From Anaerosomatales bacterium (lineage in GTDB: Bacteria > Actinomycetota > Coriobacteriia > Anaerosomatales > SLCP01), in assembly GCA_029210645.1 (NCBI GenBank), contig JARGFT010000002.1, positions 40,016 to 104,015 of the forward strand: a DNA stretch of 64,000 bases, written 5' to 3'. Under the pieces are notes generated by a model, which was not told the origin of the DNA, made no database searches, and saw only the letters and a list, made by a program, of their open reading frames with translations. The translations under genes were made by a program, and so were the position numbers. Positions 3,814 to 19,833 of the stretch are shown one piece after another. Numbering within the stretch: position 1 is the first letter of the stretch; each line of letters begins with the position of its first letter.

Positions 3814-6800
3814 CTACATCTCTACTTTTCGGATATCGCACAGACATGCCTTGTACTCCGGGATGGTCGTGTTCGCATCCATCGAGTCGATGCACAGGTC
3901 GTTGGCACGAGAACCGGTCGAAAGCCCCCGGTCACCCCAGTGCCACGGAATGGCGACCACTCCGACGCCGACGCGCTGGTTGTCTTCCGCACCGACACCG
4001 ACGCGAGCGATGAAGCCCTCTGCGAACGGCGCTCCGACGGTCCGACCTTCCTGGTCGCTCGTGCTGTTGCTGCGGGCGGTGATGACGTCGACCATGTCAC
4101 CGGTCGTGATGCCCTTCGCAGCCGCGTCGACCGAGTTGATCTCGATCCACGGCGTGGGCTCCGCCTCAACGTTCCACGGGTTGTTACGGGTGATCGGGCC
4201 GCCCTGGAAGTGCTCGACGCACCTGATCGTGGTGAGAACGAAGGGGAAGCTGTCCGCGCTCACCCGGTTGACCGCGTTGTAAGACGCATCGTTGGTGGCA
4301 ACCTTCGTGGCCTGGCCGTGGATCAGATCCCACTTCGCAGTACCCTTGGTGTTGCGGCCCCACTTCTCTGCGAGGTCCTCACGCGGCGTCTCGTACGGCT
4401 CCACGTGTGCCGGGAACCGGCCCGAGTAGACGCTGTGCTCGGCGCTCGACGCATCCGCGGCGACGATGACGTCAGGCCTGTCGGACAGTCCATGCACGAG
4501 CCTCCAGTTGTTGTTCGCATAGCCGATGGTGTTCGGCTGCTTGCACACGAAGAGGCGCGCGGCCTTGTCGGGACCCTGGTAGCCGTCGCCGTTATCGCCG
4601 GGCACGTCGCCGTTGTTGTAGAGCACACGACGGTTGACCAGCCACGAGAAGCCCCAGCCCGGGTATGCCAGCGTACCGTTCGGGTCGCTGCTGTCGCGGT
4701 TCTTGGAGCGGTTGAAGACCTTCCAATCGTCCTGAGCGGCTCCTCCGGGTGCTGCGCCATGCTTGCGCGACGTGTAGTCCTCCTGGTATCCGTCGAGATA
4801 CAGCCACATCGTGCCGCCGTTGGCGGGACGGATGTTGCACTGCTGGTAGATCTTCTCGGCGACCACCTCGGAGCCCACGACGGGAGCGCTTGCCTGGAAG
4901 CCACGGCTGTCGGCGTACCACATCTCGAGGTTCTCGGTGAGGTCCTCGAAGCCGGTGGCGTCTGCAGGACTCCAGCCGTACTGCTCCTTGTAGAGCTTGT
5001 CGTAGACGGGGTGCATGCCCGAGAGCGTCCAACTCAGCGGAGCGGCCTGCCACTTGGCGGCGATGTGGCTGAAGGCGCCCGCACCCTCGAGGGCGTACGT
5101 GAAGCGCAGCAGCAGCTCGAGATCGGACTTGGTGTTGCCCTTGGGGGCACACGCACGCTCGCGCCACTGAAGCACGCGGCCCGAGTTGGCGACGCTGCCT
5201 GCTTCCTCTGCGTACGACGACGCGGGGATGAGATAGGTCACGCTGCCTTCCTTGCGCTTACATGCAGCCGTCTCGTTCTCGAACATGTCGACGACGACGA
5301 GCGTGTCGAGGTTCTCGAGCCCGTCGCGAACCATGGACTGGTTCGGCTCGGTGACCGCAGGGTTCTGGCCCCACACCATCATGGCCGTGATGTGACCAGC
5401 AACGGCCTTGCGGAACATGAGGATGTGGTCGTCACCGTTGGTCTTGGGCCACAGGTCGTAGATGGCATCGACCGCGGCGCGCTTGGCGTCCTTCTCGGCA
5501 CGGGTGCCATAGGGCATGCCGTGAATCAGGTCGTAATCGCCGAACCACTTGAGCGTCATGTTGTAGAAACCACGCGCCTGCAGGCCGCCGGAGACACCGT
5601 AGGCGTCGTCGTACGGCAGTTCGCCGTACCGGGTCGGCTGTCCCCACAGCTTGTCGGTGTACATGCCGAACGCCTCGGAGTTCTGCACCCTCGTCTCCCG
5701 GGGGTTGCCCGAGTAGCCGGGGATCAGGTGGTAGAGCAGGCCCATGTCCGTCGAGCCCTGCACGTTGTGGATACCGCGCAGCGCGTTGATGCCGCCGCCC
5801 GCACGACCCATGTTGCCCATCAGTATCTGCAGCACGGTGAACGACTTAACGTTCTGCGAACCGCACGTGTGCTGCGTGAGACCCATGGCGTACATCATGG
5901 TCGTCGCGCGGTAGTTCCCCTTGTCGCGCGGGTCCTGCAAGCCGATGACCGAGTCGCCGGTCAGCTTGGAGCTCATGTGACGGCTGTTGTCGATGAAGGC
6001 CCGCGCCACGAAGTCGAGTTCCTCCTCGGTGACGCCACAGATGTCGGCGACCACAGCGGGAGTGTACGGCTCGACATGCTCCTTGAGACGCGAGTACACG
6101 GTGTCGGGCTCGTTGACCGACGCGGCCTTCTCGGGGAAGTACAGCATGTCCGTGTCGCCGGTGCCCGTCTCGCGGACGTAGTCGGTCCCAGCCGCGTTCA
6201 CACGGAAGCGTGCATCCGTGTACCTCGAACCGAGGTCCCGTGATCTGGTAGTGCCGTCGTTGTTGTAGAAGGTCTGCGACTCCGACTGGTTCAGGAACGT
6301 GAAGAAGTTGTCCTTGACCTCCTGGTCGACATCGCCCTCGAGGCCTTCCATCATGCGGATGATCTTGCGGGTGAGGCCCATGTTGAACGCGATATCCGTA
6401 CCGGGGCGCTGACGGATGTAGCGACCGCCGTGCGCCTCGGCCAGGATCGCCGTGCGGGTCTTGCGGGGGTCGATCACGATGATCTTCGCACCGCGCTCGT
6501 CGACCGCCTTGAGAGCGTGCGCCGTCGCCGCGGGGTGGTTCTCGACGAAGTTCGAGCCCATGACCACGAAGAGCGTGCCATTGCCCAGATCGGCCCAGTT
6601 GTTGGTCATCGCGCCTCGTCCGAATGCGGCGGCCAGACCGGCCACCGTGGACGAGTGTCATATGCGGGCCTGATGCTCGACGTTGCTCGTACCGAAGTTC
6701 GCGATGATCTTGCGGTAGAGGTAGTTCTGGTCGTTGTTGATGTGCGACGACCCGAAGAACGCGACGGTGTCGGAGTTGTTCTCTTCGTGAGCGACCGCGA

Positions 6801-7290
6801 GGTCACCGCGCGCCGCGACCATGGCTGCGGCGGACTCGTTCAGCGCGGCATCGAGGGACATCTTCTCCCAGGGGCCGTTGCCCGTGCGCTTGTAGGCGAT
6901 GCCGTCGGCGTAGGTAGGATCGTACGCGAAGGTGTTGTTCACCGGATGCGATCCAGCCCATGCGCCAACACGGCGGGGGTTGTTGACGAGCTGGTAACTG
7001 CCGGCACCCTTGGAGCAGAGACCCCCTCTGTTCCACGGTGAGTTGTGGTCTCCGTAAATGTCCAGTACGTTTCCTTCCGCATCCACATCGACGAGCTGAC
7101 CACAGCTCGCCGAGCAGTACGGACAGGTGGTGTGGTACGTCGCTGCAACTTCCGCGGCGGCGGCACTTGACGGCTTGGCGGCGAAATCGAGACCCGCTGC
7201 TCCAACAGCAGCGGTTGCCGCGCCTGCCTGCAAGAACTGGCGCCGTGTCAGCTTCAGGGACTTACCTCCATCCTTATCCAGTTTGCCCAT
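3814..7290 (-). CDS. fdnG: selenocysteine-containing molybdo/tungstopterin oxidoreductase, FDH-N alpha-like (formate dehydrogenase family), Tat-exported
   Basis: Track ORFs 6658-7326 and 3814-6645 are one gene joined by an in-frame TGA at 6658-6660. The junction ...NVEHQARI-U-HSSTVAGLAAAFGRGAMTNNW matches the Sec-His active-site block of FdnG (ARV-U-HGPTVASLAPTFGRGAMTNHW). It has a twin-arginine signal (LTRRQFLQAGAATAAVGAAG) and an N-terminal FeS motif (CPYCSASCG...C). ATG 7290 is preceded by GAGAGGGAAGAGG; ATG 7326 is an alternative start. Product is about 1158 aa. Confidence 0.9.
6615..6657 (-). promoter_or_regulatory. SECIS hairpin directly 3' of the FDH UGA codon
   Basis: mRNA reads UGA-CA-CUCGUCC-ACG-GGUGGCC-GGUCU-GGCCGCC-GCAUUC-GGACGAG. 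Lower stem CUCGUCC/GGACGAG; upper stem GGUGGCC/GGCCGCC with one G-U pair; apical loop GGUCU, the same loop sequence as the E. coli fdhF SECIS. Confidence 0.7.
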
Positions 7291-7423
7291 GCCTCTTCCC
7301 TCTCTGTCGTTTCGCACTCTCCCCATTGAGACGTGCGAATCGTTCTGCGGGCCTGACCGACCCGCGAGTCACGTTCTACCGACGACCTCCTCTCCCGTGC
7401 TTCCGTGGAAGGGACGAGAATGC

Positions 7424-7478: not shown

Positions 7479-7552
7479 CTCGTGTCTCGTCTCCCTTACC
7501 CCGTACACCGATGAACCGGGCCCCATTTGCCGGGGGGCCCGTATGCCCATCA

Positions 7553-7660
7553 GTCTCCTTTCCAAGGTCCGAAAGGACGGGAGGCGCCGTCGTTTCCCAC
7601 GACACCCTAACGGCTTGGATCCCTGGCCAGAGCAGCTGTAGGAGTCCGAAGCTCGGAGAC
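7553..7660 (-). promoter_or_regulatory. Moco/Tuco-type riboswitch-like element in the FDH leader
   Basis: The 3' block GGCGCCUCCCGUCCUUUCGGACCUUGGAAAGGAGAC resembles the conserved CGCCUCCCG...GGAAAGG block of the E. coli moaA Moco RNA. The 5' strand GUCUCCGAG can pair with GGAGAC as P1. It aligns along its length with the second copy at 25514-25616, and paired stems covary between the copies. Confidence 0.55.
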
Positions 7661-7719
7661 GATGTTCCTGTTGTCAGGGCCCGCCTGCAGTGCCGGTGAC
7701 TCACGGGCCGGGTCGTGCG

Positions 7720-7838: not shown

Positions 7839-9371
7839 TCACTCCGTCTTCACCTCGTCGGCCTCGAGGTACTTCTCGACGAAGAGCGCCGCGTCGTACG
7901 CGTCCACGCCCATCGCCCGTGCGGCCACCGCCAGACTGGCGTCCTCGGTACAGAGGGTCTTGGTGCGCTTCGCGATGGTCAGGACGAGTGCCGTCTCGCG
8001 GTCCACGCCGATCCGCTTCATGAGGTCGTTCACGTCGGACTCTGAGTGGCGCTCGGCCTTGAGCATGGTCGTCAACCGGACCCCGCCCAGTTCACGCCCG
8101 CGGTACTTCTCCATGTGCTCGGCGGGCACGATCCAGTGCCAGCGCCTGCGCTCGGCTGCCTCCTCGAGCGTGTCGGCGGACGCCATGGCGATCAGGAAGT
8201 CCTCGGTGACCGTGAAGCGGCGGCGGCGCAGAAGCAACAGGAGCGGCAGTAGGAGCAGCGGCAGTAGGCAGAAGCCCCACTGAGCCGGCGTTTCGGGCGC
8301 CACCGGAATGACGGGCACGACCTGGTCGGGCCAGCCCCAGACCTGCACGCGGTGGTTCAGGCGATCGGTGATGTAGATGCGTTCGCGTTGGTCGAGTGCG
8401 AGGTCGTTCGCGTAGCGGAACTGCCCGGGCCCGATGCCAGGGCCACCGAAGCCGGTTATCCGCTCGCCGTTGGTGTCGTAGACATCGGTCTGATGCGCGA
8501 GCGCGTCGGCGACGTAGAGCTGCTCCTGGTCGTCGAGCGCGAGTCCGCGCGGGATGCCCGACGTGCGTACGATCGAGTCGAACTGGCCGTTCTCATCGAA
8601 GACCTGGACGCGGCGGTTGTTGCTGTCGGCGACGTAGATCTTGCCGGCCATCGCCTCCACGTCGTTGGGGAAGTAGAACGCGCCCGGACTGTCCGAGATC
8701 TCCTCGACCTGGACGAAGCGCCCGAAGCGTCGGAGTTCCGTTCCGTTCTCGTCGAAGACGATCACCTGGTGAAGTGCAACCCGGCCCACGTCGGTGACGA
8801 GCAGATTGTCGTTCTCGTCGAAGCCGAGCCCGAGCGGGCCCCAGAGGCGCGCCTCCTCGGCATCCGCCGGTTCGACCTTGCGCAGGTACTCGCCGTCCAG
8901 CGTGAACACGTAGACCGCACGGTGGCGCCGGTCCGAGACGAAGAGCTCACCCTTGCTGTTGATGGCGAGGTAGACCGGCGTGCCGAGCGTGGTGTTGCCA
9001 CCGTCGGCGATCTCGTTGAACGAGAACAGGTAGTCGCCATCGGCCGTGTAGACGCGCACCAGCTGCGCGGCCGAATCGGTGATGTAGACGCGGTCGTCCT
9101 CGCTGACCGCCACGCCGAGCGGGCGGGTGAGCGCGTTGTCCCCCTCGGGACCTGAGATCGAGTACAGGTAGCGGGGCGGCTCGACGGCCTCCTCCAGCCG
9201 CCCGAGCCCCGGCACCGGCAGCCGGCGGTTCACGCTGAAGAAGTAGATCGAGTAGAGGACGAGCGCGAGCAGCGCGAGCAGCAGCGCGAGAGCGAGCCAC
9301 TTCTTCCAGCCACCTCGGCCGGTATCTGCGCGTCCGAACGGGTTGCTCTCCGTGTGCCTGTCCTGTGCCAT
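7839..9371 (-). CDS. NHL-repeat beta-propeller protein with two TM helices and a C-terminal cytoplasmic domain
   Basis: N-terminal TM helix (WLALALLLALLALVLYSIYFF). Repeated NHL-like blades follow (RPLGVAVSEDDRVYITD, PVYLAINSKGELFVSD, PLGLGFDENDNLLVTD, FYFPNDVEAMAGKIYVAD, PRGLALDDQEQLYVAD, ANDLALDQRERIYITD). Then a second TM helix (WGFCLLPLLLLPLLLLL) and a tail of about 120 aa. GAGGAG lies upstream of the ATG. Confidence 0.85.
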   Translation of the reverse strand: MAQDRHTESNPFGRADTGRGGWKKWLALALLLALLALVLYSIYFFSVNRRLPVPGLGRLEEAVEPPRYLYSISGPEGDNALTRPLGVAVSEDDRVYITDSAAQLVRVYTADGDYLFSFNEIADGGNTTLGTPVYLAINSKGELFVSDRRHRAVYVFTLDGEYLRKVEPADAEEARLWGPLGLGFDENDNLLVTDVGRVALHQVIVFDENGTELRRFGRFVQVEEISDSPGAFYFPNDVEAMAGKIYVADSNNRRVQVFDENGQFDSIVRTSGIPRGLALDDQEQLYVADALAHQTDVYDTNGERITGFGGPGIGPGQFRYANDLALDQRERIYITDRLNHRVQVWGWPDQVVPVIPVAPETPAQWGFCLLPLLLLPLLLLLRRRRFTVTEDFLIAMASADTLEEAAERRRWHWIVPAEHMEKYRGRELGGVRLTTMLKAERHSESDVNDLMKRIGVDRETALVLTIAKRTKTLCTEDASLAVAARAMGVDAYDAALFVEKYLEADEVKTE

Positions 9372-9383
9372 CGAAGCTCCTCG

Positions 9384-10400
9384 TTACTCCTGTGTCTTGA
9401 GCCGGTCGACCGCGTCGGCGGCCTCACGGTCGTTGGGTGCACGATCTACCACGTTGCGCCACGCCTCGAGTGCCGCATCGTCATCTCCGGCATCCTCGTA
9501 GAGCTCGGCCACGAACCGTGCGATCTCGATGTCGTCGGGCTCGAGCGCACGAGCGATGCGCGCCTCGGTCAGTGCCGCGTCGATGTCGGTGCTCGCGAGG
9601 CCCCGGGCGCGCTCGAACCGCTCCTGGCCGTCAGCCTCGCGTTCGATCTCCGCGAGCTCGTCATGCGGCTCGCGCCGGCTGGCCGGCGCATTGTCGGCCG
9701 ACTGGCGGAAGTGCTCGGCAGCGCTCGCGACATCACCCTCGGCGAGCAGCAAGAGACCGAGGTCGTAGTGCGCCTCGGGCATCCTCGGATCGAAGCGCAG
9801 CGCTTCTTCCAGGTGGCGGCGCTGGTTGGTCTCGGACCCGAGCTCCCGGTATGCGTACGAGAGCATGTAGTGCGTGTCGGCCGAGGTCCGCCGCATACGC
9901 AGGGCTTCGGTGAGGTACTGTACCGCTTCCTCGTGGCGCCCCTGCTCAAGAAGCGTGACGCCGAGCTGATACAACGCGCGCTCGAGCCGCTGGTCAAGCA
10001 GCGAGTACTGCCCACCGGACAGCTCGTCGATGGCCGCACGCCAGTACTCCTCGGCCGTGTCCCACTCGCCCTGGAACATGGCGATGAGCCCGAGGCCCGA
10101 AAGCGCGTTGGGGTTGTCCGGCTCTATCTCGAGAGCTGCGTTGAACTGCTCGATCGCGTCACGCAGGCGCCCGTCCGATGCGAAGGCCTCAGCGAGCGTC
10201 AGCCGCAGCTGAAGGTTCTGAGGGTCCTCCTCCACCGCCGCTATCAGGTTCTCGATCGCGCGAGAAGCGGGCTGGGCCCGGCGTTCCCGGGTCTGAAAGG
10301 CGATGACGGTGTAGGCCAGGTACGCAAGCGCGACGATCAGGACGACGAGTACCACCTTGATGGCCGTGTCGAGCCAGCGTATGTCGGATGAAAACCTCAC
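9384..10400 (-). CDS. membrane-anchored TPR-repeat protein
   Basis: N-terminal TM helix (VVLVVLIVALAYLAYTVIAF) followed by tandem 34-aa TPR-like units (AEAFASDGRLRDAIEQFNAALEIEPDNPNALSGLG, ...). GTG start. Confidence 0.85.
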   Translation of the reverse strand: MRFSSDIRWLDTAIKVVLVVLIVALAYLAYTVIAFQTRERRAQPASRAIENLIAAVEEDPQNLQLRLTLAEAFASDGRLRDAIEQFNAALEIEPDNPNALSGLGLIAMFQGEWDTAEEYWRAAIDELSGGQYSLLDQRLERALYQLGVTLLEQGRHEEAVQYLTEALRMRRTSADTHYMLSYAYRELGSETNQRRHLEEALRFDPRMPEAHYDLGLLLLAEGDVASAAEHFRQSADNAPASRREPHDELAEIEREADGQERFERARGLASTDIDAALTEARIARALEPDDIEIARFVAELYEDAGDDDAALEAWRNVVDRAPNDREAADAVDRLKTQE

Positions 10401-10446
10401 GAACGCCTCGATTCTCGGCAGATGCCGCGGTGCTGTCGCACGCGGA

Positions 10447-12039
10447 TCAGATGTTCAGATCGGCGTGGCACCGGCGACAGAGTTGGGAGCCGGGCCACGG
10501 TGCGATCTCGATGTTGCTGGAGTCCAGTGCACCGTGGCAGTCATAACAGATACGCAAGTCGTGTGCCTGAGTCGCGAAGTTGTGCGTTCCGAAGTCGCGG
10601 ACGCGCGCCACTGTGAAGCCGACGTGGCAGTCATCGCACACGTACGGACGCCCGATCGACTCCTCGACCCCGAAGTGCACCGCGTGCTCGGCGAAGCCCA
10701 TCTCCTTGATATCCGTGGCGGGTTCGGTTGCCATCACGGGGTGACAGTCCACGCAGTTCTCTGCGACAAGCTCGAGATCGCGCACGTCACCGTGGTGGCA
10801 CTCCTGGCACGACGCGCGGTCCTGATGGCAGACCTTGCAGTCATCGCGCGGGTAACCGTTTGCCGTATGGTCCGCCAGCCAGGTGGTGGAGTGCGGCATC
10901 GGCGTGAAGTGACACCGCTGGCACGACTCGGACGTGTGGCAGACGGAGCATGCGCCCATGCCGCCGAGGTAGATCCCTCCGTGGTCGACGATCCACTCGG
11001 CCTGCTGGTGGTCATCGGGGATGACCTGCAGGCTCAGCGTACCGTCGGCGAGTTCGCGCTCTCCGCGGTGGCACTCGGAACACAGCGTCGATGCGTGGCA
11101 CATGGTGCACTGCGGCATGTCGTCCCGTGCCGGCCCCGCATGCTCCTCGGCGATGAACGCCGGCGTGTGGTCGGCCGGTATCAGCTCGAAGGCGGGCGGG
11201 TGACAGAGCAGACACTCCTCACCAGCCACCTCACCCTGGGCCGCATGGAGCAGACCGTGACACCGGTAGCAGGAGATCATCGTGGGAATCTCGACTTCCC
11301 CCACGCCGTGAGGGAAGGACTCGTGGCAGGTCTCGCACCGGTAGTCGCGCATCAGATGCGTGTCGTGGGTGAAGATGAGGTCCGGCCACTCGCGATCGAT
11401 CACCGGGTGGCAGAAGAAGCACTGGCCCATCGTCACCGCACCGGTCGGGTCGACGGTCACCGGCGGGCGCCGCTCCGGCGTCGGGATGGAGCTCACGTAG
11501 ATCGGCGGCGCGCGCGGCGTGTCGATGGCGAGTTCGGCGTGGCAGGCGTCGCAGTCCTGGCGCGGATCGTGGCAGAGGATGCACCCATTCGTGCCGCCAC
11601 GGAGTGAAGCGCCGGCGTGAGGCTCCTCGGCCCACGTCTCGACGTGCCATGCCGGCCTGAGCTCGAACTCCGGCGTGTGGCAGTAGTCACACGAACCGGT
11701 GGCGACGAGTCCCTGGACGCCGTGGACCAGGCCGTGGCACGCAAAGCAAGTCGACATCGGCGGCGAGTAGGTGATGCCGGCCTCGTGAGCCGGTCTGATG
11801 TGGCACGCGTTGCACGCGGGAGGCAGGTGAGTCTCGTGGTCGAACGTGAGCCCCGGCGAGCGGGACTCTCCGAGCGACTCGTGACACTGTAGGCATGAGG
11901 AAGCTCTGACGGGTCCCGTGAGGTCGATCTCGGGCGACGCCTCCTGGCCGATGCCGGACAGCGGTCCGGCCATGGCGAACGCGGTCGCAAGGAGCACGAC
12001 CGCGGCGCCGAGCAGGATCGTTTTTCGGGCGGGTCTCAT
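10447..12039 (-). CDS. multihaem c-type cytochrome with 20 CxxCH motifs, secreted
   Basis: Signal peptide MRPARKTILLGAAVVLLATAFAMA. I counted 20 CxxCH motifs in 530 aa, from CLQCH to CRRCH. A roughly 120-aa six-haem module occurs twice. No CxxCK motif and no non-cytochrome domain. Confidence 0.9.
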   Translation of the reverse strand: MRPARKTILLGAAVVLLATAFAMAGPLSGIGQEASPEIDLTGPVRASSCLQCHESLGESRSPGLTFDHETHLPPACNACHIRPAHEAGITYSPPMSTCFACHGLVHGVQGLVATGSCDYCHTPEFELRPAWHVETWAEEPHAGASLRGGTNGCILCHDPRQDCDACHAELAIDTPRAPPIYVSSIPTPERRPPVTVDPTGAVTMGQCFFCHPVIDREWPDLIFTHDTHLMRDYRCETCHESFPHGVGEVEIPTMISCYRCHGLLHAAQGEVAGEECLLCHPPAFELIPADHTPAFIAEEHAGPARDDMPQCTMCHASTLCSECHRGERELADGTLSLQVIPDDHQQAEWIVDHGGIYLGGMGACSVCHTSESCQRCHFTPMPHSTTWLADHTANGYPRDDCKVCHQDRASCQECHHGDVRDLELVAENCVDCHPVMATEPATDIKEMGFAEHAVHFGVEESIGRPYVCDDCHVGFTVARVRDFGTHNFATQAHDLRICYDCHGALDSSNIEIAPWPGSQLCRRCHADLNI

Positions 12040-12048
12040 CCGGCCGGC

Positions 12049-13296
12049 TTACCCCCGACCTCTGAACGCACGCCACCAGCGGATGATCGGATTGCTCGAG
12101 ACCGCCTCGCTCCGACCGTGGATGAGGTAGGACGTCTGCTCGATGAACGACTCGCCGGAGCCGTAGTGGCAGCCGTCCTGACCGCAGGTCTCGACCGCGT
12201 TGGCGGGATACATGAGTGCTGCGGGGTCAGTCACCGCAAGCAACTCGTGCGCACCGTGGCAGTCCCAGCACGACGGGGCATCGACGGCCCCGCGCTTGTA
12301 CGGAGCCCCGTGATAGTAGTCGTCGTAGCTGTCGAACGCCTCGCGATGGCACTCGGCGCACATCTGCTCGCCGCTCAGGTGCAGCGCACGCCGGGCCGCC
12401 TCGGTATCGAGGCGAGCGATGTCGTGACCGCCGTGGCAGGAAGCACAAGTCGCCGAGGAGTACTCGCCATCGGCGATGAGCCTGCCATGGAGCGACTCCT
12501 CGTAGACTTCGGTCACGTCCTGGTGGTCGTGGCACTCCTGGCATGCAAGGCCGGCATTGACGCGCCAGAGCGGTGTCGCGGGCGCATCATCGGTGTAGTC
12601 GAAGTCGGGATGACACTGCGAACAGGTGATGTCACGGTGGGCACTCTGATCGATCCCCGTGACGTAGTAGGACTTCAGCCCGTCCTCGGACACCTTCGTG
12701 AGGTTCTCGTAGCCGTGACAGGCAAGGCACCCGTTCTCGGCGTCGTACGTGAATGGAACAGCAGTGCGCCAGGTCACCCCGACCTCCTGGTGGCAGGAGT
12801 CGCAGTCGGCCTTCGTATGGCACATCATGCACGTGGTCCGCAGCTCGTCGATGCCCGGCTGGACGTGCGGCTCCTCGGCCCAGTCGCGACCGTGGAACTC
12901 GGGACGCATCTGCCCGGCGTAGTTGCCGTGGCACTGCTCACACTCGTAGCCTGCGATGATCCCCATCGGGCCGTGACGCAGCCCGTGACAGTTCCAACAG
13001 CTCTTCATCGTGGGGGTCAGGGTCCCTGCCGGCGTGTGAGGAAACACACCGTGGCAGCTGCTGCACGCATACACCATGTGGGTGGCGTGACTGAACTCGA
13101 CCTGCGGGTTGCGGCCCTCGGCTATCACCCCGTGACACACCTTGCAGGTGCTCGCGTAAACAGGTGCACCCGTGTCGATGATGAGGACGCTATCCTCCTG
13201 AGCAACTGCGAGCGCCACCACTCCGAGCAGCAGCACTGCCGCGCACACGGCCGCCAAGAGGAGATGGACCGCCCGACCTCTGGTGAGATGGATCAT
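12049..13296 (-). CDS. multihaem c-type cytochrome (12 CxxCH plus one CX4CH)
   Basis: N-terminal signal or anchor (AVHLLLAAVCAAVLLLGVVALAVA). 12 CxxCH motifs plus CGQDGCH. The N-terminal half is paralogous to the six-haem module of the 20-haem protein; the C-terminal part is paralogous to the 7-haem protein. Confidence 0.9.
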   Translation of the reverse strand: MIHLTRGRAVHLLLAAVCAAVLLLGVVALAVAQEDSVLIIDTGAPVYASTCKVCHGVIAEGRNPQVEFSHATHMVYACSSCHGVFPHTPAGTLTPTMKSCWNCHGLRHGPMGIIAGYECEQCHGNYAGQMRPEFHGRDWAEEPHVQPGIDELRTTCMMCHTKADCDSCHQEVGVTWRTAVPFTYDAENGCLACHGYENLTKVSEDGLKSYYVTGIDQSAHRDITCSQCHPDFDYTDDAPATPLWRVNAGLACQECHDHQDVTEVYEESLHGRLIADGEYSSATCASCHGGHDIARLDTEAARRALHLSGEQMCAECHREAFDSYDDYYHGAPYKRGAVDAPSCWDCHGAHELLAVTDPAALMYPANAVETCGQDGCHYGSGESFIEQTSYLIHGRSEAVSSNPIIRWWRAFRGRG

Positions 13297-13350
13297 CGCC
13301 GCCTACCCTTCCGAGTCCCGTGTGATGCGCCGCTCCTGAAGAGGTCGCGC

Positions 13351-14238
13351 CTAGCCACCGAACAAGCCGGAGATCGCCGACCGTATCCTGCTCAGGAAGG
13401 CAAAGAGGGGGTTTTGCTCCAGCATTTCACCGTGCCCGTGGATCAACTCCGCGTAGGTCAGGTAGTCGACGTTCACGTCATGGTGACAGGCAGGGTTGCT
13501 GGTGCACGTCTCTGCAAGCCGACTCTCGTGCACGGTCGAACGACGGTCGCTCGAGGGCCTGATGTCGTGGTAGCCGTGGCAGTCCCAGCAGGATGGCGCG
13601 TCGTACGCGCCGCCGCGCTTGAATGGGCGGCCGTGGTAGTAGTCGTTGTAGTTCTCCCAGTAGTCCTCGTGGCAGCGGCCACAGACCTCCCATGCGTTGT
13701 CCCGCATCGCCGCTTGCCCCTCGGGACTGTCCACGAGCGCCACCATGTCGTGCGCGCCGTGGCAATCGCCACAGAGCGGCTTCTCATCGGCATCCGCCGA
13801 CGCACCGTTGCCGACCTCGATACGGTGAGCGCCCTGGCCGTACTCAACGTACTGGTCCTGGTGGCAGTTCTTGCACGCGGACTTGGCGGTGCGCTGCCAG
13901 TCCTCGGTTTCCTGCACGTGAGGCAGGGTGAAGGCGAAGTCGAGGTGGCAGCCGGCGCACTGGACCGTCGCGTGCGGGCCCGCCTCGAGCTCGGCGGGAT
14001 CGACGAAGAAGCTCACGATCTCGTCCTCGCGCAGACGGATGAGGTTCTCGTCGCCGTGACACACTAGACATCCCGCCTTGGCGGCGGTAGGCAGGGTGAA
14101 GTCGACATCGTATCCGGCAACATCAGCGCTCGTGGTGGCCACGGACGCTTCCTGGGCGAGAGCTGCCAGGGGGATCATCGTCACAGAAACCGCCAGCGCC
14201 AGTAGCGCCACCCTGGTCAGAGTGCCCGCTCGCATCAC
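13351..14238 (-). CDS. multihaem c-type cytochrome (6 CxxCH plus one CX5CH)
   Basis: Signal peptide (LTRVALLALAVSVTMIPLAALAQE). Motifs CLVCH, CAGCH, CKNCH, CGDCH, CGRCH and CWDCH, plus CTSNPACH. The start (GTG 14238 or ATG 14235) overlaps the stop of the cytochrome b gene. Confidence 0.9.
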   Translation of the reverse strand: MMRAGTLTRVALLALAVSVTMIPLAALAQEASVATTSADVAGYDVDFTLPTAAKAGCLVCHGDENLIRLREDEIVSFFVDPAELEAGPHATVQCAGCHLDFAFTLPHVQETEDWQRTAKSACKNCHQDQYVEYGQGAHRIEVGNGASADADEKPLCGDCHGAHDMVALVDSPEGQAAMRDNAWEVCGRCHEDYWENYNDYYHGRPFKRGGAYDAPSCWDCHGYHDIRPSSDRRSTVHESRLAETCTSNPACHHDVNVDYLTYAELIHGHGEMLEQNPLFAFLSRIRSAISGLFGG

Positions 14239-15083
14239 TGATCACCCGCCGTCGTCCCCGCGGCCGGGACCGCGTGCGGCTCCGGTGCATGACCGTGGCC
14301 GCCCTTGATCTCCAGGTCCTTGACGAAGAAGAAGTCGAGCGTGACCGGGACGTCCTCGGTCGCGGACAGGTAGACGTGGATGGTGGTCATGATGATGAAG
14401 AGCCAGTTGATCACGTAGTGGGCCGTACGCGCATACCATCCCGCGAGGTCGGTCGAGCCCACGAAGACTCCGAGCCACCAGCCCACGAGGATGTCACGGG
14501 GACTGTAGCCCCAGAATATAGGCGTGAACACTAATGCGAAGCCCGTATACGCCTGCAACAACATCAGCACGAGGAAGAACTGGTAGCTGAACTTCTGCAT
14601 GACGTTGTACTTCGACGACGTGTGCGGCTTGCTGTTGCTGATGTAGGAGTAGTAGAGGATGACGCCGAGTGCGGACTTGGCGTCCTCCTTGGTGATCGCG
14701 AACTCCCTCCAGTCGCGCTGCTTGGAGAAGAAGGCGTACCACAGCCGCCAGATGAGGTTGATCGTGACGACGATCATCGCGAAGTAGTGGATGTAGCGCA
14801 TCGCCATGCGGCCGCCGTCGAAGAACGGGAACCTGATGTAGAGACCCGAGATCGCGAGGACGATCATCATCAGCATATGTGTGTGGTGCAGGAGCTTGGG
14901 CTGGGTCCCCGGAGCGTGATCGTGCTCGGGCCACTTCTTGAGGATGAACTTCTTGCGGAAGCGCCCCTTGGGGATGCTGCCGAGGAAGTGTATGACGAGG
15001 GCGACCAGAACGACCGCGTAGAGGCTGGTGAACACGACGTCCAGCCAGATGTTCAACTGGGTCAGGCTTACTATCGCCGACAC
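14235..15083 (-). CDS. membrane dihaem cytochrome b, FdnI/HyaC (Ni_hydr_CYTB)-like; putative quinol-interacting subunit
   Basis: Five hydrophobic helices with conserved His residues (KLLHHTHMLMMIVLAISGLY, MRYIHYFAMIVVTINLIW, ARTAHYVINWLFIIMTTIHVYL). GTG start with GGGAG upstream. First gene of the cytochrome operon. Confidence 0.8.
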   Translation of the reverse strand: MSAIVSLTQLNIWLDVVFTSLYAVVLVALVIHFLGSIPKGRFRKKFILKKWPEHDHAPGTQPKLLHHTHMLMMIVLAISGLYIRFPFFDGGRMAMRYIHYFAMIVVTINLIWRLWYAFFSKQRDWREFAITKEDAKSALGVILYYSYISNSKPHTSSKYNVMQKFSYQFFLVLMLLQAYTGFALVFTPIFWGYSPRDILVGWWLGVFVGSTDLAGWYARTAHYVINWLFIIMTTIHVYLSATEDVPVTLDFFFVKDLEIKGGHGHAPEPHAVPAAGTTAGDQ

Positions 15084-15216
15084 CCCCCCTGCTCCCTGTC
15101 ACGCGAGGACTCGCAGCCCCCGCGTATGCGATTCGGCCGTCTCTTCCTGCAGCTTGGCTTCAGCCGCACGCGACACGCTCGACGACTGCCGGACGTCGGG
15201 CGTTGCAGGAAGAGCT

Positions 15217-15232
15217 CGTAACACGAGTTACA
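15217..15232. promoter_or_regulatory. palindrome CGTAAC-ACGA-GTTACA (candidate operator, copy 2 of 3)
   Basis: Located in the 233-nt non-coding region upstream of the cytochrome b gene, about 135 nt from its start. It shares the GTAAC-N4-GTTAC core with 7720-7737 and 22760-22775. Confidence 0.45.
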
Positions 15233-15316: not shown

Positions 15317-15565
15317 CTAGACATCCTCTATGTCCCCTCGCGCGGCGACCCGGAGTTCCGCGCGCTCCAGCAGGGTGTCGGCACGTTCAACATCGCCGGG
15401 CTCAAGCCGCAGGGCGATGCCACACAGCCCGTTGCCGATCGAGGCGGGGGCGGGGATCGGTGTCACGGGCACACCGAGGTCTCTGAGCAACTGCTCGGCA
15501 GCGAGCGCGGTATGAGTGGTCGCAAAGCCGAGCACGGCGAAGGTGCGCAACGGGCGACCGCTCAT
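15317..15565 (-). CDS. DUF3343-family small protein (putative S/Se-handling accessory protein)
   Basis: MSGRPLRTFAVLGFATTHTALAAEQLLRDLGVPVTPIPAPASIGNGLCGIALRLEP..., 82 aa. ATG 15565 overlaps the desulfurase stop (ATGA). The longer 103-aa track ORF includes out-of-gene sequence. Confidence 0.65.
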   Translation of the reverse strand: MSGRPLRTFAVLGFATTHTALAAEQLLRDLGVPVTPIPAPASIGNGLCGIALRLEPGDVERADTLLERAELRVAARGDIEDV

Positions 15566-16731
15566 GAAGTAACAATCTCCCTCAGGGCACGCAGTGCAAG
15601 GCCGATGTGCTCGCTGGTGTTGCCCCACCCCACGCCGAGACGCACCGCCCCGCAGTCCACCGTGCCGATGGTGCGATGTGCCCAGGGCGCGCAGTGCAGA
15701 CCGGCTCTGGCGGCAATACCGTACGTGCGGTCGAGCGCGAAGGCGATCCTGTCTGCCTCCAACCGCTCGTGCACCGCACTGACGATCGGCACGCGCGGCG
15801 CGCCGGCCGGAGGGCCGAGCACACGGAAGCCCTCAATCTGTGAGATTCCCTCGATGAGCTGGTACACGAGTTCCGTCTCGCGACGGTGCTGTCGAGCGCC
15901 CTCGGCGATAAGGAACGCAGCTCCCGCTCCGAGGCCGACGATACCCGGCGTGTTGGCGGTTCCCGCCTCGTAGCGATCGGGGCGCTCGATGGGCATGTCG
16001 GGGGACTCTGATCCCCCGCCGCCGGTCCCGCCCTCCACCTGTGTCCGGACGTCAAGGTCGGGAGAGAGGTAGAGCAGGCCCACCCCCTGCGGCCCGAGCA
16101 TGCCCTTGTGACCGGAGGTCGCGTACGCGTCGACCCCGAGAACACCGATGTCCACGTCGACGTGTCCCGCTCCCTGGGCACCGTCCACAAGCATCAGCGC
16201 GCCGTGCTCGTGCGCGATGTCGGCGAGGTCTCCGATGAGCTGAATGGTGCCGGTCAAGTTCGACGCATGCTGACAGACGACCGCGCGCGTCGGCGCCGCG
16301 CGGACCTCGCGCTCCACGTCATCGGGATCCACGAGTCCCGTGCGGTCGCCTTGCACGACAACCACCTCGATACCCGTCCGTGCCAGGTGCTCGAGCGGCC
16401 GCGCGACGGCGTTGTGCTCCATCGACCCGACGACGACCCGGTCACCAGGCTTCAGCGTCCCCTTGAGCATGAGGTTGCAGCCTGCCGTACAGCTGGGCTG
16501 GAAGATCAGGTCGCTGGAGTCGGGGACGCCGAGCAGCTCTGCGCACGTCCGCCGGGACTCGAAGATGGCGCGCGATGCCGCGAGCGCCATCGCGTACGCG
16601 CCACGTCCCGGGTTGCCGCCGAGATCGGTCAGAGCACGGGTGACCGCATGAACGACCTGTTCGGGCTTCGGCCAGGACGTCGCGCCGTGATCGAGGTAGG
16701 CGACCGGCCGTGGGGAGCTGGATGCGGGCAC
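15562..16731 (-). CDS. class-V aminotransferase: cysteine desulfurase / selenocysteine lyase family
   Basis: PLP-lysine block ATSGHKGMLGPQGVGLLY. N-terminal YLDHGATSWPKP. Conserved HASNLTG and a late Cys (GLHCAPWAH). Confidence 0.88.
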   Translation of the reverse strand: MPASSSPRPVAYLDHGATSWPKPEQVVHAVTRALTDLGGNPGRGAYAMALAASRAIFESRRTCAELLGVPDSSDLIFQPSCTAGCNLMLKGTLKPGDRVVVGSMEHNAVARPLEHLARTGIEVVVVQGDRTGLVDPDDVEREVRAAPTRAVVCQHASNLTGTIQLIGDLADIAHEHGALMLVDGAQGAGHVDVDIGVLGVDAYATSGHKGMLGPQGVGLLYLSPDLDVRTQVEGGTGGGGSESPDMPIERPDRYEAGTANTPGIVGLGAGAAFLIAEGARQHRRETELVYQLIEGISQIEGFRVLGPPAGAPRVPIVSAVHERLEADRIAFALDRTYGIAARAGLHCAPWAHRTIGTVDCGAVRLGVGWGNTSEHIGLALRALREIVTS

Positions 16732-17220
16732 CTAGTGCCCCCCTCCGGCCATCATCTCGACGGCATGCTCCAGCTGGTCGGCGATGAAACCGAATGACTC
16801 CCGGGCAGCCTTCTCGCTGCCCGGAAGGTTGACGATGAGCGTCGTGCCTCGCACACCCGCGGTCCCCCGCGAGAGCATCGCTCGCGGCGTGACCGCGAGA
16901 CTCTGTGCGCGGATGTGCTCGGCGATGCCGGGCGCGCGACGACCGGCGACCCTCTCGGTCACCTCGGGAGTGATGTCGCGCGGGCTGAAACCGGTGCCGC
17001 CACAGGTAAGCACGACATCGGCGTTGATGGCATCGGCCATCTCGATGAGCGCCTCGGCGATGCACGACTCCTCGTCGGGGCAGATGGTGTAGGCGACGAC
17101 CTCCCAGCCGCGCGCGGCGATGAGATCCTTGAGCGCCGCACCAGCAGTGTCCTCTGCCTCGGAGCGCGTGTCGGAGCAGGTGAGGATGCCCATTCGCAGC
17201 GGGCGGTCCACGTCACTCAC
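16732..17220 (-). CDS. MogA/MoaB-family molybdopterin adenylyltransferase
   Basis: ILTCSDTRSEAEDTAG..., LTCGGTGFSPRDITPE, LSRGTAGVRGTTLIVNLPGSEKA. ATG 17193 is an alternative start. Confidence 0.85.
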   Translation of the reverse strand: MSDVDRPLRMGILTCSDTRSEAEDTAGAALKDLIAARGWEVVAYTICPDEESCIAEALIEMADAINADVVLTCGGTGFSPRDITPEVTERVAGRRAPGIAEHIRAQSLAVTPRAMLSRGTAGVRGTTLIVNLPGSEKAARESFGFIADQLEHAVEMMAGGGH

Positions 17221-17707
17221 ACCGATCGCAACTGCCGTCGCCGAGCGAGACGACCTCGACGGTGTCGCCCACCGCGACGTCGCCGGGCTGGCGCACCACG
17301 ACGAAGATGCCCTCGCGGGGCATGACGCAGTCGCCGGCCTGGTAGTAGATGGCGCACTTGGTGTGGCACACCTTACCGATCTGGCTCACCTCGAGGACGG
17401 CCTTCTCGCCGACCTTGAGCACGCTGCCCACGGGAAGGGCGGGCAGGTCGATGCCCTCGGTGGTGATGTTCTCGGCGAAGTCCCCCGCCCCGACGTCGAG
17501 GCCCTTGGCGACCATCGAGTCGATGGACTCCTGAGCGAGCAGACTCACCTGGCGGTGCCAGTCGCCCGCGTGAGCATCGCCCTCGAAGCCACGGTCGTAG
17601 ACGAGAGTGCCACTCTGGCCGGGGGTCTTGCGGACCGTCTTCTTCTCGGAGAGGTTCACCGAGACCACCCGGCCGGGCCGGGGAAGCGTGTCGTTCTCGC
17701 CGCTCAT
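17213..17707 (-). CDS. MOSC-domain protein
   Basis: 164 aa; GFEGDAHAG...HRQVSLL...; conserved Cys region [16 protein letters not shown]. Embedded in the Moco operon with overlapping stop and start codons. Confidence 0.75.
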
Positions 17708-18234
17708 TCGTCCTCCTTACGGGTCCAGCGGCCTGACGCGCCGCCATCCTTCTCGAGCAGCATGACGTCACCGAGGACCATGCCCCGATCGACCGCCTTG
17801 CACATATCGTACAGGGTCAAGCCCGCAACCGCCGCCGCCGTGAGCGCCTCCATCTCCACGCCCGTGGGCCCGGTGGTCTCGCACGTAGCGGTGATGCGCA
17901 CAGCGGCACTGCCCACGATGTCGGCGGGCGCGGGCTCGGGTTCGAGCTCCACGCTCGCGTGCGTGAGCGCGAGCGGGTGACACATCGGAACGAGATCGCT
18001 CGTGCGCTTGGCGGCCATGATGCCGGCGATCCGCGCGGTAGCGAAGACGTCGCCCTTCGGCGCGCGGCCCACGACGATCATCGCCAGTGTCTCGGGACGC
18101 ATGGTCACGAGCGCCGAGGCGACGGCCCGACGGCGCGTATCGGGCTTGCTGCCGACGTCGACCATGCGCGCCTCGCCCCGCTCATCGAGGTGCGTGAGGC
18201 GCTCGTGGCGTCCAGCGTCGTTCGCAGCGGTCAT
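17704..18234 (-). CDS. moaC: cyclic pyranopterin monophosphate synthase MoaC
   Basis: [27 protein letters not shown]..., [30 protein letters not shown]. Confidence 0.9.
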
Positions 18235-18240
18235 CGGAGG

Positions 18241-19263
18241 TCAGCCCCCTATCTGGGACATGCCGCGCGTGGTACCCACGCGCATGCTGTGGCTCTCGGG
18301 TTTGGTGGCGAGTGCGGCCCTGATGACGTCGCGCACATCGGAGTCGGTGCCCTCGCGCAGCACCGTGCGGACGTCGATCTCCTCGTCGGAGAAGAGGCAC
18401 GCGCGCAGACGGCCATCGGCAGTCAGGCGCAGGCGGTTGCACTCGCCGCAGAAGTGGTGCGACAGCGGGGTGATGACACCGACGGTACCCTCGGCACCGG
18501 GAAACCGGTAGTAGCGGGCAGGCCCCCAGCCACCGGGTGCGTCGCCTCGCTGAACCGGCTCGGGCGCCCCGATGCCCGCAGCGACGCCTGCGGCAGTCAA
18601 ACGCTCGAGGATCTCATCGGCAGGCACGTGGTCGGCTTGCGTCCAACCCTCGCTCGCGGGCTCACATTCGCCTCCGCCCACACCGCCTACCGGCATGTAC
18701 TCGATGAAACGCACGTGAACGGGCCGGCCGAGCGTCATACGCGCGAAGCCGAGGAGGTCCTGCTCGAGGCTGCGCACGACAACGGCGTTCACCTTGATCG
18801 GCCCCATACCCGCCTCGAACGCGGCATCGAGCCCCGCGAGCGCGTCGGTGAGCTTGCCGCCACGGGTCACGCGCTCGAAAACGGCCGGATCGAGCGAGTC
18901 GATGGAGACGTTGACGCGCGTGAGGCCTGCTTCGACCAGCGGAACGGCGTAACGCTCGAGCAGCGTGCCGTTGGTGGTCAGGGCGATAGCTTCAAGCCCG
19001 GTGAGCGCTTTGAGGCGCCGCACGTGACCGACGACTCCCTTGCGCACGAGTGGCTCGCCGCCGGTGAGTCGGATCTTCGAGATGCCCTCACTCACGGCAG
19101 CTGCCGCAAACCGCTCGATCTCCTCAAGGGTGAGGATCTCGTCGTGCGGCTTCCACGGCACGCCCTTGGCGGGCATGCAGTAGACGCAGCGCAGGTTGCA
19201 CCGGTCGGTAAGGCTGATGCGCAGGTAGTCGATGCGCCGGCCGTAGGAGTCGGTGGCCATCAC
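18241..19263 (-). CDS. moaA: GTP 3',8-cyclase MoaA (radical SAM)
   Basis: YLRISLTDRCNLRCVYCMP (CxxxCxxC), GEPLVR, and the C-terminal second-cluster motif CGECNRLRLTADGRLRAC. Confidence 0.95.
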   Translation of the reverse strand: MMATDSYGRRIDYLRISLTDRCNLRCVYCMPAKGVPWKPHDEILTLEEIERFAAAAVSEGISKIRLTGGEPLVRKGVVGHVRRLKALTGLEAIALTTNGTLLERYAVPLVEAGLTRVNVSIDSLDPAVFERVTRGGKLTDALAGLDAAFEAGMGPIKVNAVVVRSLEQDLLGFARMTLGRPVHVRFIEYMPVGGVGGGECEPASEGWTQADHVPADEILERLTAAGVAAGIGAPEPVQRGDAPGGWGPARYYRFPGAEGTVGVITPLSHHFCGECNRLRLTADGRLRACLFSDEEIDVRTVLREGTDSDVRDVIRAALATKPESHSMRVGTTRGMSQIGG

Positions 19264-19784: not shown

Positions 19785-19833
19785 GCGTTGTGAGCCTCCT
19801 GGCGCGGTACCGGCCGCGCCCATCCTATCGGCG

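Follow-up and report, generated by a model that had tools for sequence, protein, structure and literature searches.

Multihaem cytochromes and an exchangeable donor enzyme in a putative two-operon respiratory module of Anaerosomatales

What would a monoderm actinobacterium do with the 40 c-type haems encoded in a single run of genes, and which donors and acceptors would those haems connect? The question is raised by a 64-kb stretch of an Anaerosomatales (OPB41, Coriobacteriia) genome, hereafter the window, in which six co-directional genes encode a cytochrome b, three c-type cytochromes with 7, 13 and 20 haems, a tetratricopeptide repeat (TPR) protein and an NHL beta-propeller protein. An earlier note, made from the sequence alone, had treated these six genes as a self-contained operon and as a candidate conduit from quinol to extracellular acceptors. 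In related genomes, the same genes are followed by a further cytochrome gene in every locus that extends far enough and, in most, also by genes for a formate dehydrogenase (FDH) or a [NiFe]-hydrogenase. We consider it on balance probable that the two neighbouring operons form one respiratory module of Anaerosomatales, in which a donor enzyme and a multihaem conduit operate between formate or H2 and extracellular electrons.

Gene order and the donor-enzyme slot

The gene set was read from the listing of open reading frames (ORFs) and by counting haem motifs; statements on gene content refer to the 64 kb of the window. The first operon contains the following genes, with transmembrane (TM) helices as predicted.

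14235-15083, minus strand: cytochrome b (dihaem, FdnI/HyaC family), 282 aa, about five TM helices, PF01292
13351-14238, minus strand: 7-haem c-type cytochrome, 295 aa, six CxxCH and one Cx5CH (CTSNPACH)
12049-13296, minus strand: 13-haem c-type cytochrome, 415 aa, 12 CxxCH and one Cx4CH (CGQDGCH)
10447-12039, minus strand: 20-haem c-type cytochrome, 530 aa, 20 CxxCH
9384-10400, minus strand: TPR protein, 338 aa, single TM helix (16-34), many TPR families far above cut-off
7839-9371, minus strand: NHL beta-propeller protein, 510 aa, PF01436 at 100.8 bits, TM helices 26-44 and 363-381

The intergenic gaps are, in order, -4 (an overlap), 54, 9, 46 and 12 nt. The overlap of 4 nt is that of the cytochrome b stop with the start of the 7-haem gene, and these two genes are translationally coupled. 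Much of what the earlier note had described at this level stands: the genes, their coordinates and their strand are as given there, although one gap, of 54 nt, falls outside its range of 1-50 nt or overlaps. The motif counts agree as well, with 6 + 12 + 20 = 38 CxxCH motifs, one Cx5CH and one Cx4CH in the 1240 aa of the three multihaem proteins and no CxxCK motif in any of the three. The FdnI/HyaC type of the cytochrome b is borne out by its match to PF01292 (63.8 bits against a cut-off of 30.1, residues 63-243), and the membrane-anchored TPR protein and the two-TM NHL propeller by family scores far above the cut-offs and by the predicted TM helices. The guess of an actinobacterial host was also sound: the nearest relatives are metagenome-assembled genomes (MAGs) labelled Coriobacteriia or Anaerosomatales, and, among the more than 250 homologues of the 20-haem protein, of which the best (98% identity) is from MAG KA18, those with names are nearly all from MAGs labelled Coriobacteriia, Anaerosomatales, Actinomycetota or 'Thermoleophilia'.

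The boundaries of the locus had been drawn too narrowly. The earlier note left out a riboswitch and an FDH operon immediately downstream and genes for molybdenum cofactor (Moco) synthesis and selenocysteine (Sec) incorporation upstream, and their inclusion changes the reading of the six genes; it also made no mention of the C-terminal domain of the NHL protein. The gap between the NHL gene and fdnG spans 512 nt and contains a Moco/tungsten-cofactor riboswitch, placed 213 nt upstream of the fdnG start. The second operon encodes an enzyme with a signal for twin-arginine translocation (TAT) and its partners.

7539-7670, minus strand: Moco/tungsten-cofactor riboswitch RF01055, 59.5 bits against a gathering score of 36
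3814-7326, minus strand: FDH catalytic subunit (FdnG/FdhA-like), 1170 aa, TAT motif, UGA at 6658-6660
2957-3799, minus strand: FdnH-like subunit with four [4Fe-4S] clusters, C-terminal TM anchor (helix 246-264), starting within 14 nt of fdnG
1767-2951, minus strand: OmcS-family hexahaem cytochrome, 394 aa, six CxxCH, 5 nt after the FdnH gene
241-1791, minus strand: orphan polytopic membrane protein, about 12 TM helices, true start probably later

Promoter and terminator scans of both intergenic regions returned nothing, a type of scan that is uninformative for an actinobacterium with 65-70% GC.

The gene-order search that the earlier note had suggested was informative. A scan with one genome per GTDB species gave 80 Anaerosomatales (OPB41)-like loci across which the order recurs, and all window proteins were compared with these loci by tblastn; counts of downstream genes use the 49 of the 80 that reach at least 6 kb beyond the NHL gene. 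A frame of 7-haem, 20-haem, TPR, NHL and hexahaem genes is universal, with the hexahaem gene present in 49/49 loci, which sets aside the notion of a self-contained six-gene operon. The full order (cytochrome b, 7-haem, 13-haem, 20-haem, TPR, NHL, FdnG, FdnH, hexahaem) is found in 29/49 loci; a further 4/49 keep FdnGH and are missing the cytochrome b and 13-haem genes, and 16/49 are without FdnGH. Over all 80 loci, the FDH pair is present in 36, and 17 carry the small and large subunits of a TAT-exported [NiFe]-hydrogenase in the exact slot that FdnGH otherwise occupies between the NHL gene and the hexahaem gene. A third, smaller group has no donor enzyme and keeps the cytochrome b, and the 13-haem gene is missing from some related loci. 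The riboswitch lies at the NHL-fdnG position in 5/5 FDH-type loci tested and is absent from one hydrogenase-type locus. Both types occur in the complete genome OW818687, about 30 kb apart. A fixed slot that holds either an FDH or a hydrogenase within a constant frame indicates a modular arrangement, and the natural unit, as judged from gene order and family assignments, is a conserved cytochrome/TPR/NHL frame that takes alternative, predicted extracytoplasmic donor enzymes.

Several individual loci depart from these patterns. The hydrogenase type, a paralogous cluster, is exemplified by L059 (14871-18255), L031, L045, L074 and L082, and in such clusters a soluble protein of about 450 aa that matches no family replaces the 12-TM protein. 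Locus L044 (1-19459), from a single MAG, has the two types in tandem: an FDH-type tail (NHL, FdnG, FdnH, hexahaem and membrane protein) and, directly after it, a hydrogenase-type cluster without cytochrome b, 7-haem and 13-haem genes. The 'Thermoleophilia' MAGs L009, L010, L012, L018 and L040 share a variant without the 13-haem gene and without a donor enzyme. The region matching the hexahaem gene is about 2.5 kb long in this variant and, in L010, broken into short ORFs, which may reflect long-read frameshifts or a larger or duplicated OmcS-like gene.

Cytochromes, donor enzyme and accessory proteins

Conservation across homologue alignments argues that the haem motifs of the first operon are not there by chance. 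In the 20-haem protein, all 20 CxxCH motifs and exactly 20 further histidines are invariant (46 homologues, 48-79% identity), which implies 20 bis-His haems, and all haems of this protein thus appear to be bis-His ligated. The motifs of the 7- and 13-haem proteins, both variant ones included, are at least 95% conserved (73 and 79 homologues, respectively). In pairwise comparison, the 13-haem protein resembles the 7-haem protein in its C-terminal module (34% identity, E 7e-44), whereas its N-terminal six-haem module matches the first two modules of the 20-haem protein (E 3e-31 for module 1 and 3e-22 for module 2). By these matches, the 13-haem protein is built of a six-haem module A and a seven-haem module B, the 20-haem protein of two successive modules A and an eight-haem module, and all three cytochromes are predicted to be assembled from three recurring haem modules.

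The Pfam matches of the three proteins are to c7, c3 and MtrC-domain families. The profile of the 20-haem family yielded weak matches in the PDB to c7 and c3 cytochromes, 16-haem HmcA, HAO-like proteins and ActA of alternative complex III (ACIII), and we place the protein in no specific family. Single-sequence searches of the PDB gave no match for the 20-haem protein and none for the cytochrome b, and chance-level matches only for the 7- and 13-haem proteins; an AlphaFold2 model of the 20-haem protein, built from the 46-sequence alignment, was of low confidence (pLDDT 65.4) and found no match in the PDB with Foldseek. A catalytic cytochrome of the NrfA or HAO type was considered and ruled out, since CxxCK is lacking and every c-type haem has a conserved candidate distal histidine.

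All cytochromes carry signal-peptide-like N-termini with AxA sites, and no lipobox, sortase or other wall-anchoring signal was found in them; the relay across the wall proposed in the earlier note finds no backing in these features. Conserved amphipathic helices form the C-termini of the 7-haem (13351-13420, minus strand) and 13-haem (12049-12110, minus strand) proteins, NPLFAFLSRIRSAISGLFGG and NPIIRWWRAFRGRG, respectively, and these helices end both proteins that bear haem module B. The tails may attach the proteins peripherally to the membrane or dock them to the cytochrome b.

The cytochrome b scores 71 bits against TIGR02125 (hydrogenase cytochrome b), below the cut-off of 121.5, and is by these scores a member of the PF01292 family and not a TIGR02125 equivalog; it has an extra N-terminal helix besides the PF01292 domain. 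Across 61 homologues, conservation is at least 95% for eight histidines (H32, H54, H66, H69, H99, H154, H222 and H236), of which the last two lie 14 residues apart in the last helix. H66/H69, H99, H222 and H236 are candidate b-haem ligands, and their positions would fit two haems. Loci that lack a donor enzyme retain the gene, and four FDH-type loci do not have it, so that its occurrence follows that of the 7- and 13-haem genes and not that of the enzyme. The candidate role of simply the FdnI subunit of the FDH was rejected on the same grounds. A function as the membrane entry or exit point of the haem network fits.

The two remaining proteins of the first operon carry no predicted redox function. 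The TPR protein has a CcmH/CycH-type TPR signal of 36.6 bits, below the cut-off of 42, and its orientation is ambiguous by charge bias; it may act as a chaperone for the apo forms of these large cytochromes, whose Cx4CH and Cx5CH sites are unusual. No cytochrome c maturation genes lie within the 64-kb window. For the NHL protein, charge bias across 60-70 homologues predicts an inside N-terminus, an outside propeller and an inside C-terminus. The second TM helix and an RRRR stretch are followed by a C-terminal domain (7839-8270, minus strand) of about 125 to 140 aa that is predicted to be cytoplasmic, is conserved in length (123-218 aa among 60 homologues) and matches no Pfam family. The propeller may be a scaffold, and the C-terminal domain could link it to something in the cytoplasm. 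NHL-repeat proteins are also found in the Uet electron-uptake cluster.

The catalytic subunit of the second operon is, on motif and homology grounds, a TAT-exported selenocysteine FDH. It carries the twin-arginine motif RRQFLQ and an in-frame TGA within HQARI-U-HSSTV, and the homologue of locus L001 carries the TAT_signal and Molybdop_Fe4S4 domains. The best PDB matches are FdhAB of Desulfovibrio vulgaris, the tungsten FDH of D. gigas and FdnG of Escherichia coli (E about 1e-75), and the Sec-His pair and the catalytic Arg motif (ALRG.xNVQG), here INALRGIHNVQGSTD, align with those of 8cm4/6sdv. Enzymes of the D. vulgaris FdhAB type are efficient CO2 reductases. The in-frame stop is kept in 32/32 readable homologues, and a hairpin after the UGA folds weakly better than shuffled sequence (z -1.66). 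Against TIGR01553 (cut-off 814), the portion after the Sec codon, the only part scanned, scores 370.7 bits. The FdnH-like subunit has about 16 conserved cysteines, matches Fer4_11 and gives weak matches to FDH-beta, HybA and DmsB. No gene for a b-type subunit, as in the FdnGHI architecture, directly follows that of FdnH; a hexahaem c-type cytochrome is encoded there instead.

This hexahaem protein is a relative of the Geobacter nanowire cytochrome OmcS, as far as profile comparison can tell. Its profile (46 homologues) matches OmcS 6ef8_A with E 1.2e-11 and 47.5 bits, aligning positions 42-392 with residues 8-405 of the 407 in the chain at about 30% identity over the aligned columns, and the next-best PDB chain has an E of 0.007; the single sequence gives a marginal match to an OmcE-like nanowire subunit of Desulfuromonas soudanensis (9yuq, E 0.023). 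All six CxxCH motifs and the three CxxCHxxH histidines align, the motif offsets being 0/43/121/208/296/347 in the hexahaem protein and 0/38/131/230/319/391 in OmcS. The family has six proximal and six further invariant histidines, which implies six bis-His haems. One histidine, H48, is invariant in the 46 homologues and aligns with OmcS His16, the CxxCHxxH histidine that serves in OmcS as ligand to the haem of a neighbouring subunit. An AlphaFold2 model from the 46-sequence alignment was of low confidence (pLDDT 54.5) and had no Foldseek match in the PDB. The gene takes the place, next to that for FdnH or HyaB, in which FdnI or HyaC would normally be encoded, a position from which we infer that the protein is the immediate electron partner of the donor enzyme, by analogy with the c3-type subunits of Desulfovibrio.

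The membrane protein encoded last has only 30 homologues, all of the same lineage, and an invariant motif WE(R)PSSFS. Since the homologues are 470-490 aa long, its true start is probably later than annotated. It matches nothing in Pfam, NCBIfam or the PDB, where a single-sequence search gave chance-level matches and a profile search nothing.

Electron flow and competing accounts

Two published data sets bear on function. Khomyakova et al. 2022 described the first Anaerosomatales isolates, both of which use only formate or H2 as respiratory donors; complexes II and III are lacking in both, and respiratory quinones were detected in neither (PMC9686372). One of them, the Fe(III) reducer Parvivirga hydrogeniphila, has a cluster (MCL4079376-90) of multihaem cytochromes and a molybdopterin oxidoreductase, with the FDH at MCL4079382-3, which the authors proposed as the determinant of Fe(III) reduction, assigning its FDH to CO2 reduction in autotrophy; the isolate forms pili-like appendages only with ferrihydrite present (PMC9686372). 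Judged by accession order, this cluster probably corresponds to the gene order in the window. The second organism, Coriobacteriaceae sp. EMTCatB1, dominates an electromethanogenic biocathode (Kobayashi et al. 2021; PMC7943316), and its cluster 1c0405-1c0413, with a proposed role in cathodic electron uptake (PMC7943316), is locus L019 of our sample: it encodes cytochrome b, multihaem cytochromes, TPR, NHL, FDH, iron-sulfur (FeS) subunit, hexahaem and membrane proteins at about 50% identity to those of the window. On the methane-producing cathode, the FDH genes 1c0408 and 1c0407 and the cytochrome gene 1c0406 are among the top 10% of transcripts (PMC7943316). The published values, from two replicates with large scatter, are correlative, and their genes are mapped to the window by order only; they are given below for the closed-circuit cathode, control 1 and control 2, the controls being open circuit and a methanogenesis inhibitor (PMC7943316).

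1c0406: 2716, 900, 437
1c0407: 1242, 167, 81
1c0408: 1253, 194, 194
1c0412 (multihaem): 142, 11, 51
1c0413 (multihaem): 273, 29, 38
1c0411 (TPR): 57, 24, 30

The order-matched genes are 3- to 15-fold higher on the current-consuming cathode than in the controls, and transcripts of the FDH unit exceed those of the upstream unit about 5- to 20-fold (PMC7943316). Two transcription units with a joint response to current fit this pattern.

With an FDH or hydrogenase and a hexahaem cytochrome encoded beside the first operon, formate or H2 oxidised outside the membrane is likely to be the direct electron source or sink of the system. The loci themselves display which genes are present, with their motifs, families and synteny, the exchange of cassettes and the riboswitch; the order in which electrons pass, the direction of flow, the location of the cytochromes relative to the wall and any formation of filaments are deduced. 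The TAT-exported enzyme would oxidise formate, or H2 in the sister loci, on the outward side of the membrane, and electrons would leave its FeS subunit via the OmcS-like cytochrome for a network of 46 c-type haems in all, 40 of them encoded in the first operon. The cytochrome b and 7-haem pair would tie this network to the membrane by quinone exchange or transmembrane electron transfer, which would be the step needed for energy conservation. The other side of the network would meet acceptors outside, for example electrodes or minerals with Fe(III). Probably the chain also runs in reverse, so that electron uptake could yield formate or H2. The TPR and NHL proteins would be non-redox factors of assembly, maturation or anchoring. 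The earlier note is borne out in its picture of a monoderm actinobacterium with densely packed haems for electron transfer, accompanied by TPR and NHL proteins without a redox function, and its extracellular conduit is plausible in that it fits the physiology and transcriptomics of relatives, although its relay across the wall is not upheld.

Several points weigh against this two-operon scheme. Oxidation of the donor and reduction of Fe(III), both outside the membrane, yield no proton-motive force, so a membrane loop must exist and has to be assumed, yet quinones were not detected in the cultured relatives. The distribution of the cytochrome b gene, kept without a donor enzyme and missing from four FDH-type loci, argues that its product is not simply the anchor of the FDH. 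The relationship to OmcS is remote, visible by profile only and accompanied by a weak single-sequence match to an OmcE-like protein, and polymerisation is not known for every OmcS paralogue. Protein-protein contacts, localisation beyond the membrane face and the direction of electron flow are matters of prediction from genes. The AlphaFold2 models, at pLDDT 65.4 and 54.5 and with no Foldseek match, lend no structural support to haem-haem continuity. The riboswitch and the difference in expression suggest two separately controlled units rather than one machine, and the EMTCatB1 data have the scatter and the order-only mapping given above.

Within the two-operon scheme, the part that we hold doubtful is a quinol-oxidase role of the cytochrome b. 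A bolder and unlikely version, which we offer tentatively, is that the hexahaem protein polymerises into an extracellular or wall-spanning filament charged directly by the surface-facing selenocysteine FDH or, in the sister loci, by the [NiFe]-hydrogenase, with the TPR, NHL and 7-, 13- and 20-haem proteins as monoderm machinery for its assembly and base, which would amount to a reversible 'enzyme-on-a-wire' between formate or H2 and the electrons of minerals, electrodes or partner cells, possibly working without a quinone pool. The ferrihydrite-dependent, pili-like appendages of Parvivirga support this version circumstantially.

The account given in the earlier note, of a CbcL-like menaquinol oxidase formed by the cytochrome b and 7-haem proteins that feeds the 13- and 20-haem proteins across the wall, with the FDH merely co-located and separately regulated, draws on the overlap of the first two genes, on the donor-less loci that keep cytochrome b, multihaem, TPR, NHL and hexahaem genes, on the riboswitch and 512-nt gap that set the FDH unit apart, and on the unequal expression of the two units in EMTCatB1. 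It appears improbable to us all the same: its menaquinol oxidase step sits badly with two cultured Anaerosomatales in which respiratory quinones went undetected, at least 53 loci have an FDH or a hydrogenase in one fixed slot of the conserved frame, the OmcS-like gene is coupled in transcription with the donor enzyme and not with the first operon, and four loci without the cytochrome b keep the rest.

A cell-bound, energy-conserving FDH or hydrogenase would solve the problem of energy conservation, and we judge it rather less probable still. Here the multihaem cytochromes would only wire the enzyme, by way of the cytochrome b, to an acceptor in the membrane or the cytoplasm, as in the c3/Hmc-like systems of Desulfovibrio, with the haems as an electron buffer and with no extracellular acceptor. 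The anchors of FdnGH and of HyaAB both belong to PF01292, 16-haem HmcA is a weak match of the 20-haem profile, and Anaerosoma tenue, which has contiguous genes for FdnGH and a PF01292 cytochrome b, respires sulfur compounds and not iron. Nevertheless, 46 c-type haems and an OmcS-family protein far exceed the needs of a link, no cytoplasmic terminal reductase is encoded in the cluster, and publications tie the cluster to an Fe(III)-reducing isolate and to cathode-grown cells.

Least probable of all is a physiologically inward flow from cathodes, Fe(0), reduced minerals or partner cells to the hydrogenase and the tungsten- or molybdenum-dependent selenocysteine enzyme, with formate or H2 made at the cell surface and used by syntrophic methanogens or in the reductive glycine pathway of the cell itself: the biocathode dominance of EMTCatB1, whose FDH, FeS and hexahaem transcripts rank in the top 10% and drop at open circuit, the closest solved relatives being of the CO2-reducing D. 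vulgaris FdhAB type, and the assignment of the Parvivirga FDH to autotrophic CO2 reduction speak for it, whereas a TAT-exported enzyme would make formate outside and require its re-import, the cultured relatives oxidise formate and H2, and the transcript data come from two replicates and are correlative.

Neighbouring genes, known systems and significance

Genes around the two operons are predicted to supply cofactors that the FDH would need. The main blocks are as follows.

15317-22711, minus strand: accessory block directly upstream of the first operon, encoding Se/S-carrier-like and cysteine desulfurase/Sec-lyase-like proteins, MoaB, MOSC, MoaC, MoaA, MobB, MoeA and a MobA-FdhD fusion
22803-25626, minus strand: TupABC-like ATP-binding cassette (ABC) transporter, preceded by a second Moco/tungsten-cofactor riboswitch (25500-25626)
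38725-38821 (tRNA-Sec), 38874-40790 (SelB), 40787-42424 (SelA) and 42818-43768 (SelD-like), minus strand: selenocysteine machinery

The accessory block is syntenic with the cluster in many related loci. The best NCBIfam matches of the transporter are to TupA, TupB and WtpC, all tungstate types and all below the curated cut-offs, and these matches, together with the second riboswitch, suggest that the FDH may use tungsten rather than molybdenum. Beside the transporter lie divergent regulators (26010-28063), one with helix-turn-helix (HTH) and PBP_like (ModE/molybdate-binding-like) domains on the plus strand and one of the LysR type on the minus strand. The SelD-like protein belongs to the AIR-synthase family, and the selenocysteine toolkit, complete and in one block, lies about 30 kb from the only Sec gene seen in the window.

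Elsewhere in the window, a FetB-like permease (UPF0014) gene adjoins one for an ABC ATPase (34278-35749, minus strand), and the pair resembles FetAB iron efflux, which is of note in a lineage with iron reducers. A flavodiiron-type protein with metallo-beta-lactamase/ODP and flavodoxin domains (31736-32929, minus strand) is probably the O2 or NO scavenger of an anaerobe. Two adjacent ORFs of 369 and 226 aa (29912-31709, minus strand), with a good coding signal (third-position GC content, GC3, of 0.77-0.88), match nothing in Pfam or NCBIfam. A second TPR protein with a weak CcmH/CycH-type TPR signal (45826-47660, minus strand) adjoins a protein with a B12-binding domain, and a 777-aa glycoside-hydrolase-like protein (43892-46225) lies beside these two.

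Among known systems, the closest are the two clusters of the same lineage, those of Parvivirga and EMTCatB1, the latter with the same gene order. The statement in the earlier note that no system of this composition had been characterised still holds, but the cluster had already been flagged in both organisms. We came across no publication with a characterisation of the system or a report of the OmcS link or of the exchange of donor cassettes; PMC9686372 and PMC7943316 list the genes coarsely, and we found no mention in either of the relation to OmcS, the riboswitch, the exchange of cassettes or the haem-module architecture.

In the Geobacter osc (omcS companion) operon, non-redox assembly proteins are combined with OmcS-like and very large multihaem cytochromes (PMC13194489, citing Shen et al. 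2025). The hexahaem gene of the window likewise stands beside genes for very large multihaem cytochromes and non-redox accessory proteins, the likeness of the accessory proteins being a lead only. The differences are that the host here is a monoderm with no outer-membrane porin or secretion components, that the hexahaem gene is in an operon with an FDH or hydrogenase, and that the identity to OmcS is about 30%, polymerisation of the hexahaem protein being hypothetical.

FdhAB, FdhABC3 and the [NiFe]-hydrogenase with c3 in Desulfovibrio follow the same principle, in which a TAT-exported enzyme hands electrons to a c-type multihaem protein and not to a b-type anchor. The cytochrome partner predicted here is OmcS-like and not c3, the FdnH protein carries a TM anchor, genes for an Hmc, Tmc or Qrc membrane complex are lacking, and the host, a monoderm actinobacterium, is no sulfate reducer. 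With E. coli FdnGHI and HyaABC, the cluster shares homologous FdnG and FdnH, Sec, a TAT signal, four FeS clusters and a PF01292 cytochrome b, which in this case is not adjacent to FdnH, heads a separate operon with the multihaem genes and has the extra N-terminal helix. Geobacter CbcL, a low-potential quinol oxidase whose dihaem b domain is fused to a 9-haem c domain, shows, when compared by description, the same pairing of a b-type with a multihaem c-type cytochrome; here two polypeptides are encoded by genes that overlap by 4 nt, with no fusion, and quinones were undetected in the cultured relatives.

The chains of Thermincola potens and Carboxydothermus ferrireducens, with OcwA as an example, are likewise from monoderms, in which multihaem cytochromes presumably connect the membrane with the exterior. 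No entry recognised as OcwA was among the PDB matches of any of the four cytochromes, by single sequence or profile, on the assumption that our copy of the PDB contains OcwA. To our knowledge, these systems are not fused to FDH or hydrogenase operons. The Anaerosomatales system is best described as a biochemically uncharacterised variant that combines known kinds, periplasmic FDHs or hydrogenases with cytochrome partners on the one hand and OmcS-type conduits on the other.

OPB41/Anaerosomatales are cosmopolitan in the subsurface, in mud volcanoes and in bioelectrochemical systems, and their energy metabolism is barely known. The two-operon module offers a testable hypothesis for the coupling, in these monoderm bacteria, of formate or H2 with electrodes and iron minerals. 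It also has a bearing on the feeding of methanogens by cathodes via formate or H2 and on growth with extracellular acceptors in organisms in which no quinone has been found. Tungsten- or molybdenum-dependent selenocysteine FDHs that are naturally wired to a multihaem conduit would be relevant to the electrocatalytic conversion of CO2 to formate, and the predicted hexahaem relative would extend the OmcS family into Actinomycetota and into a new genetic context.

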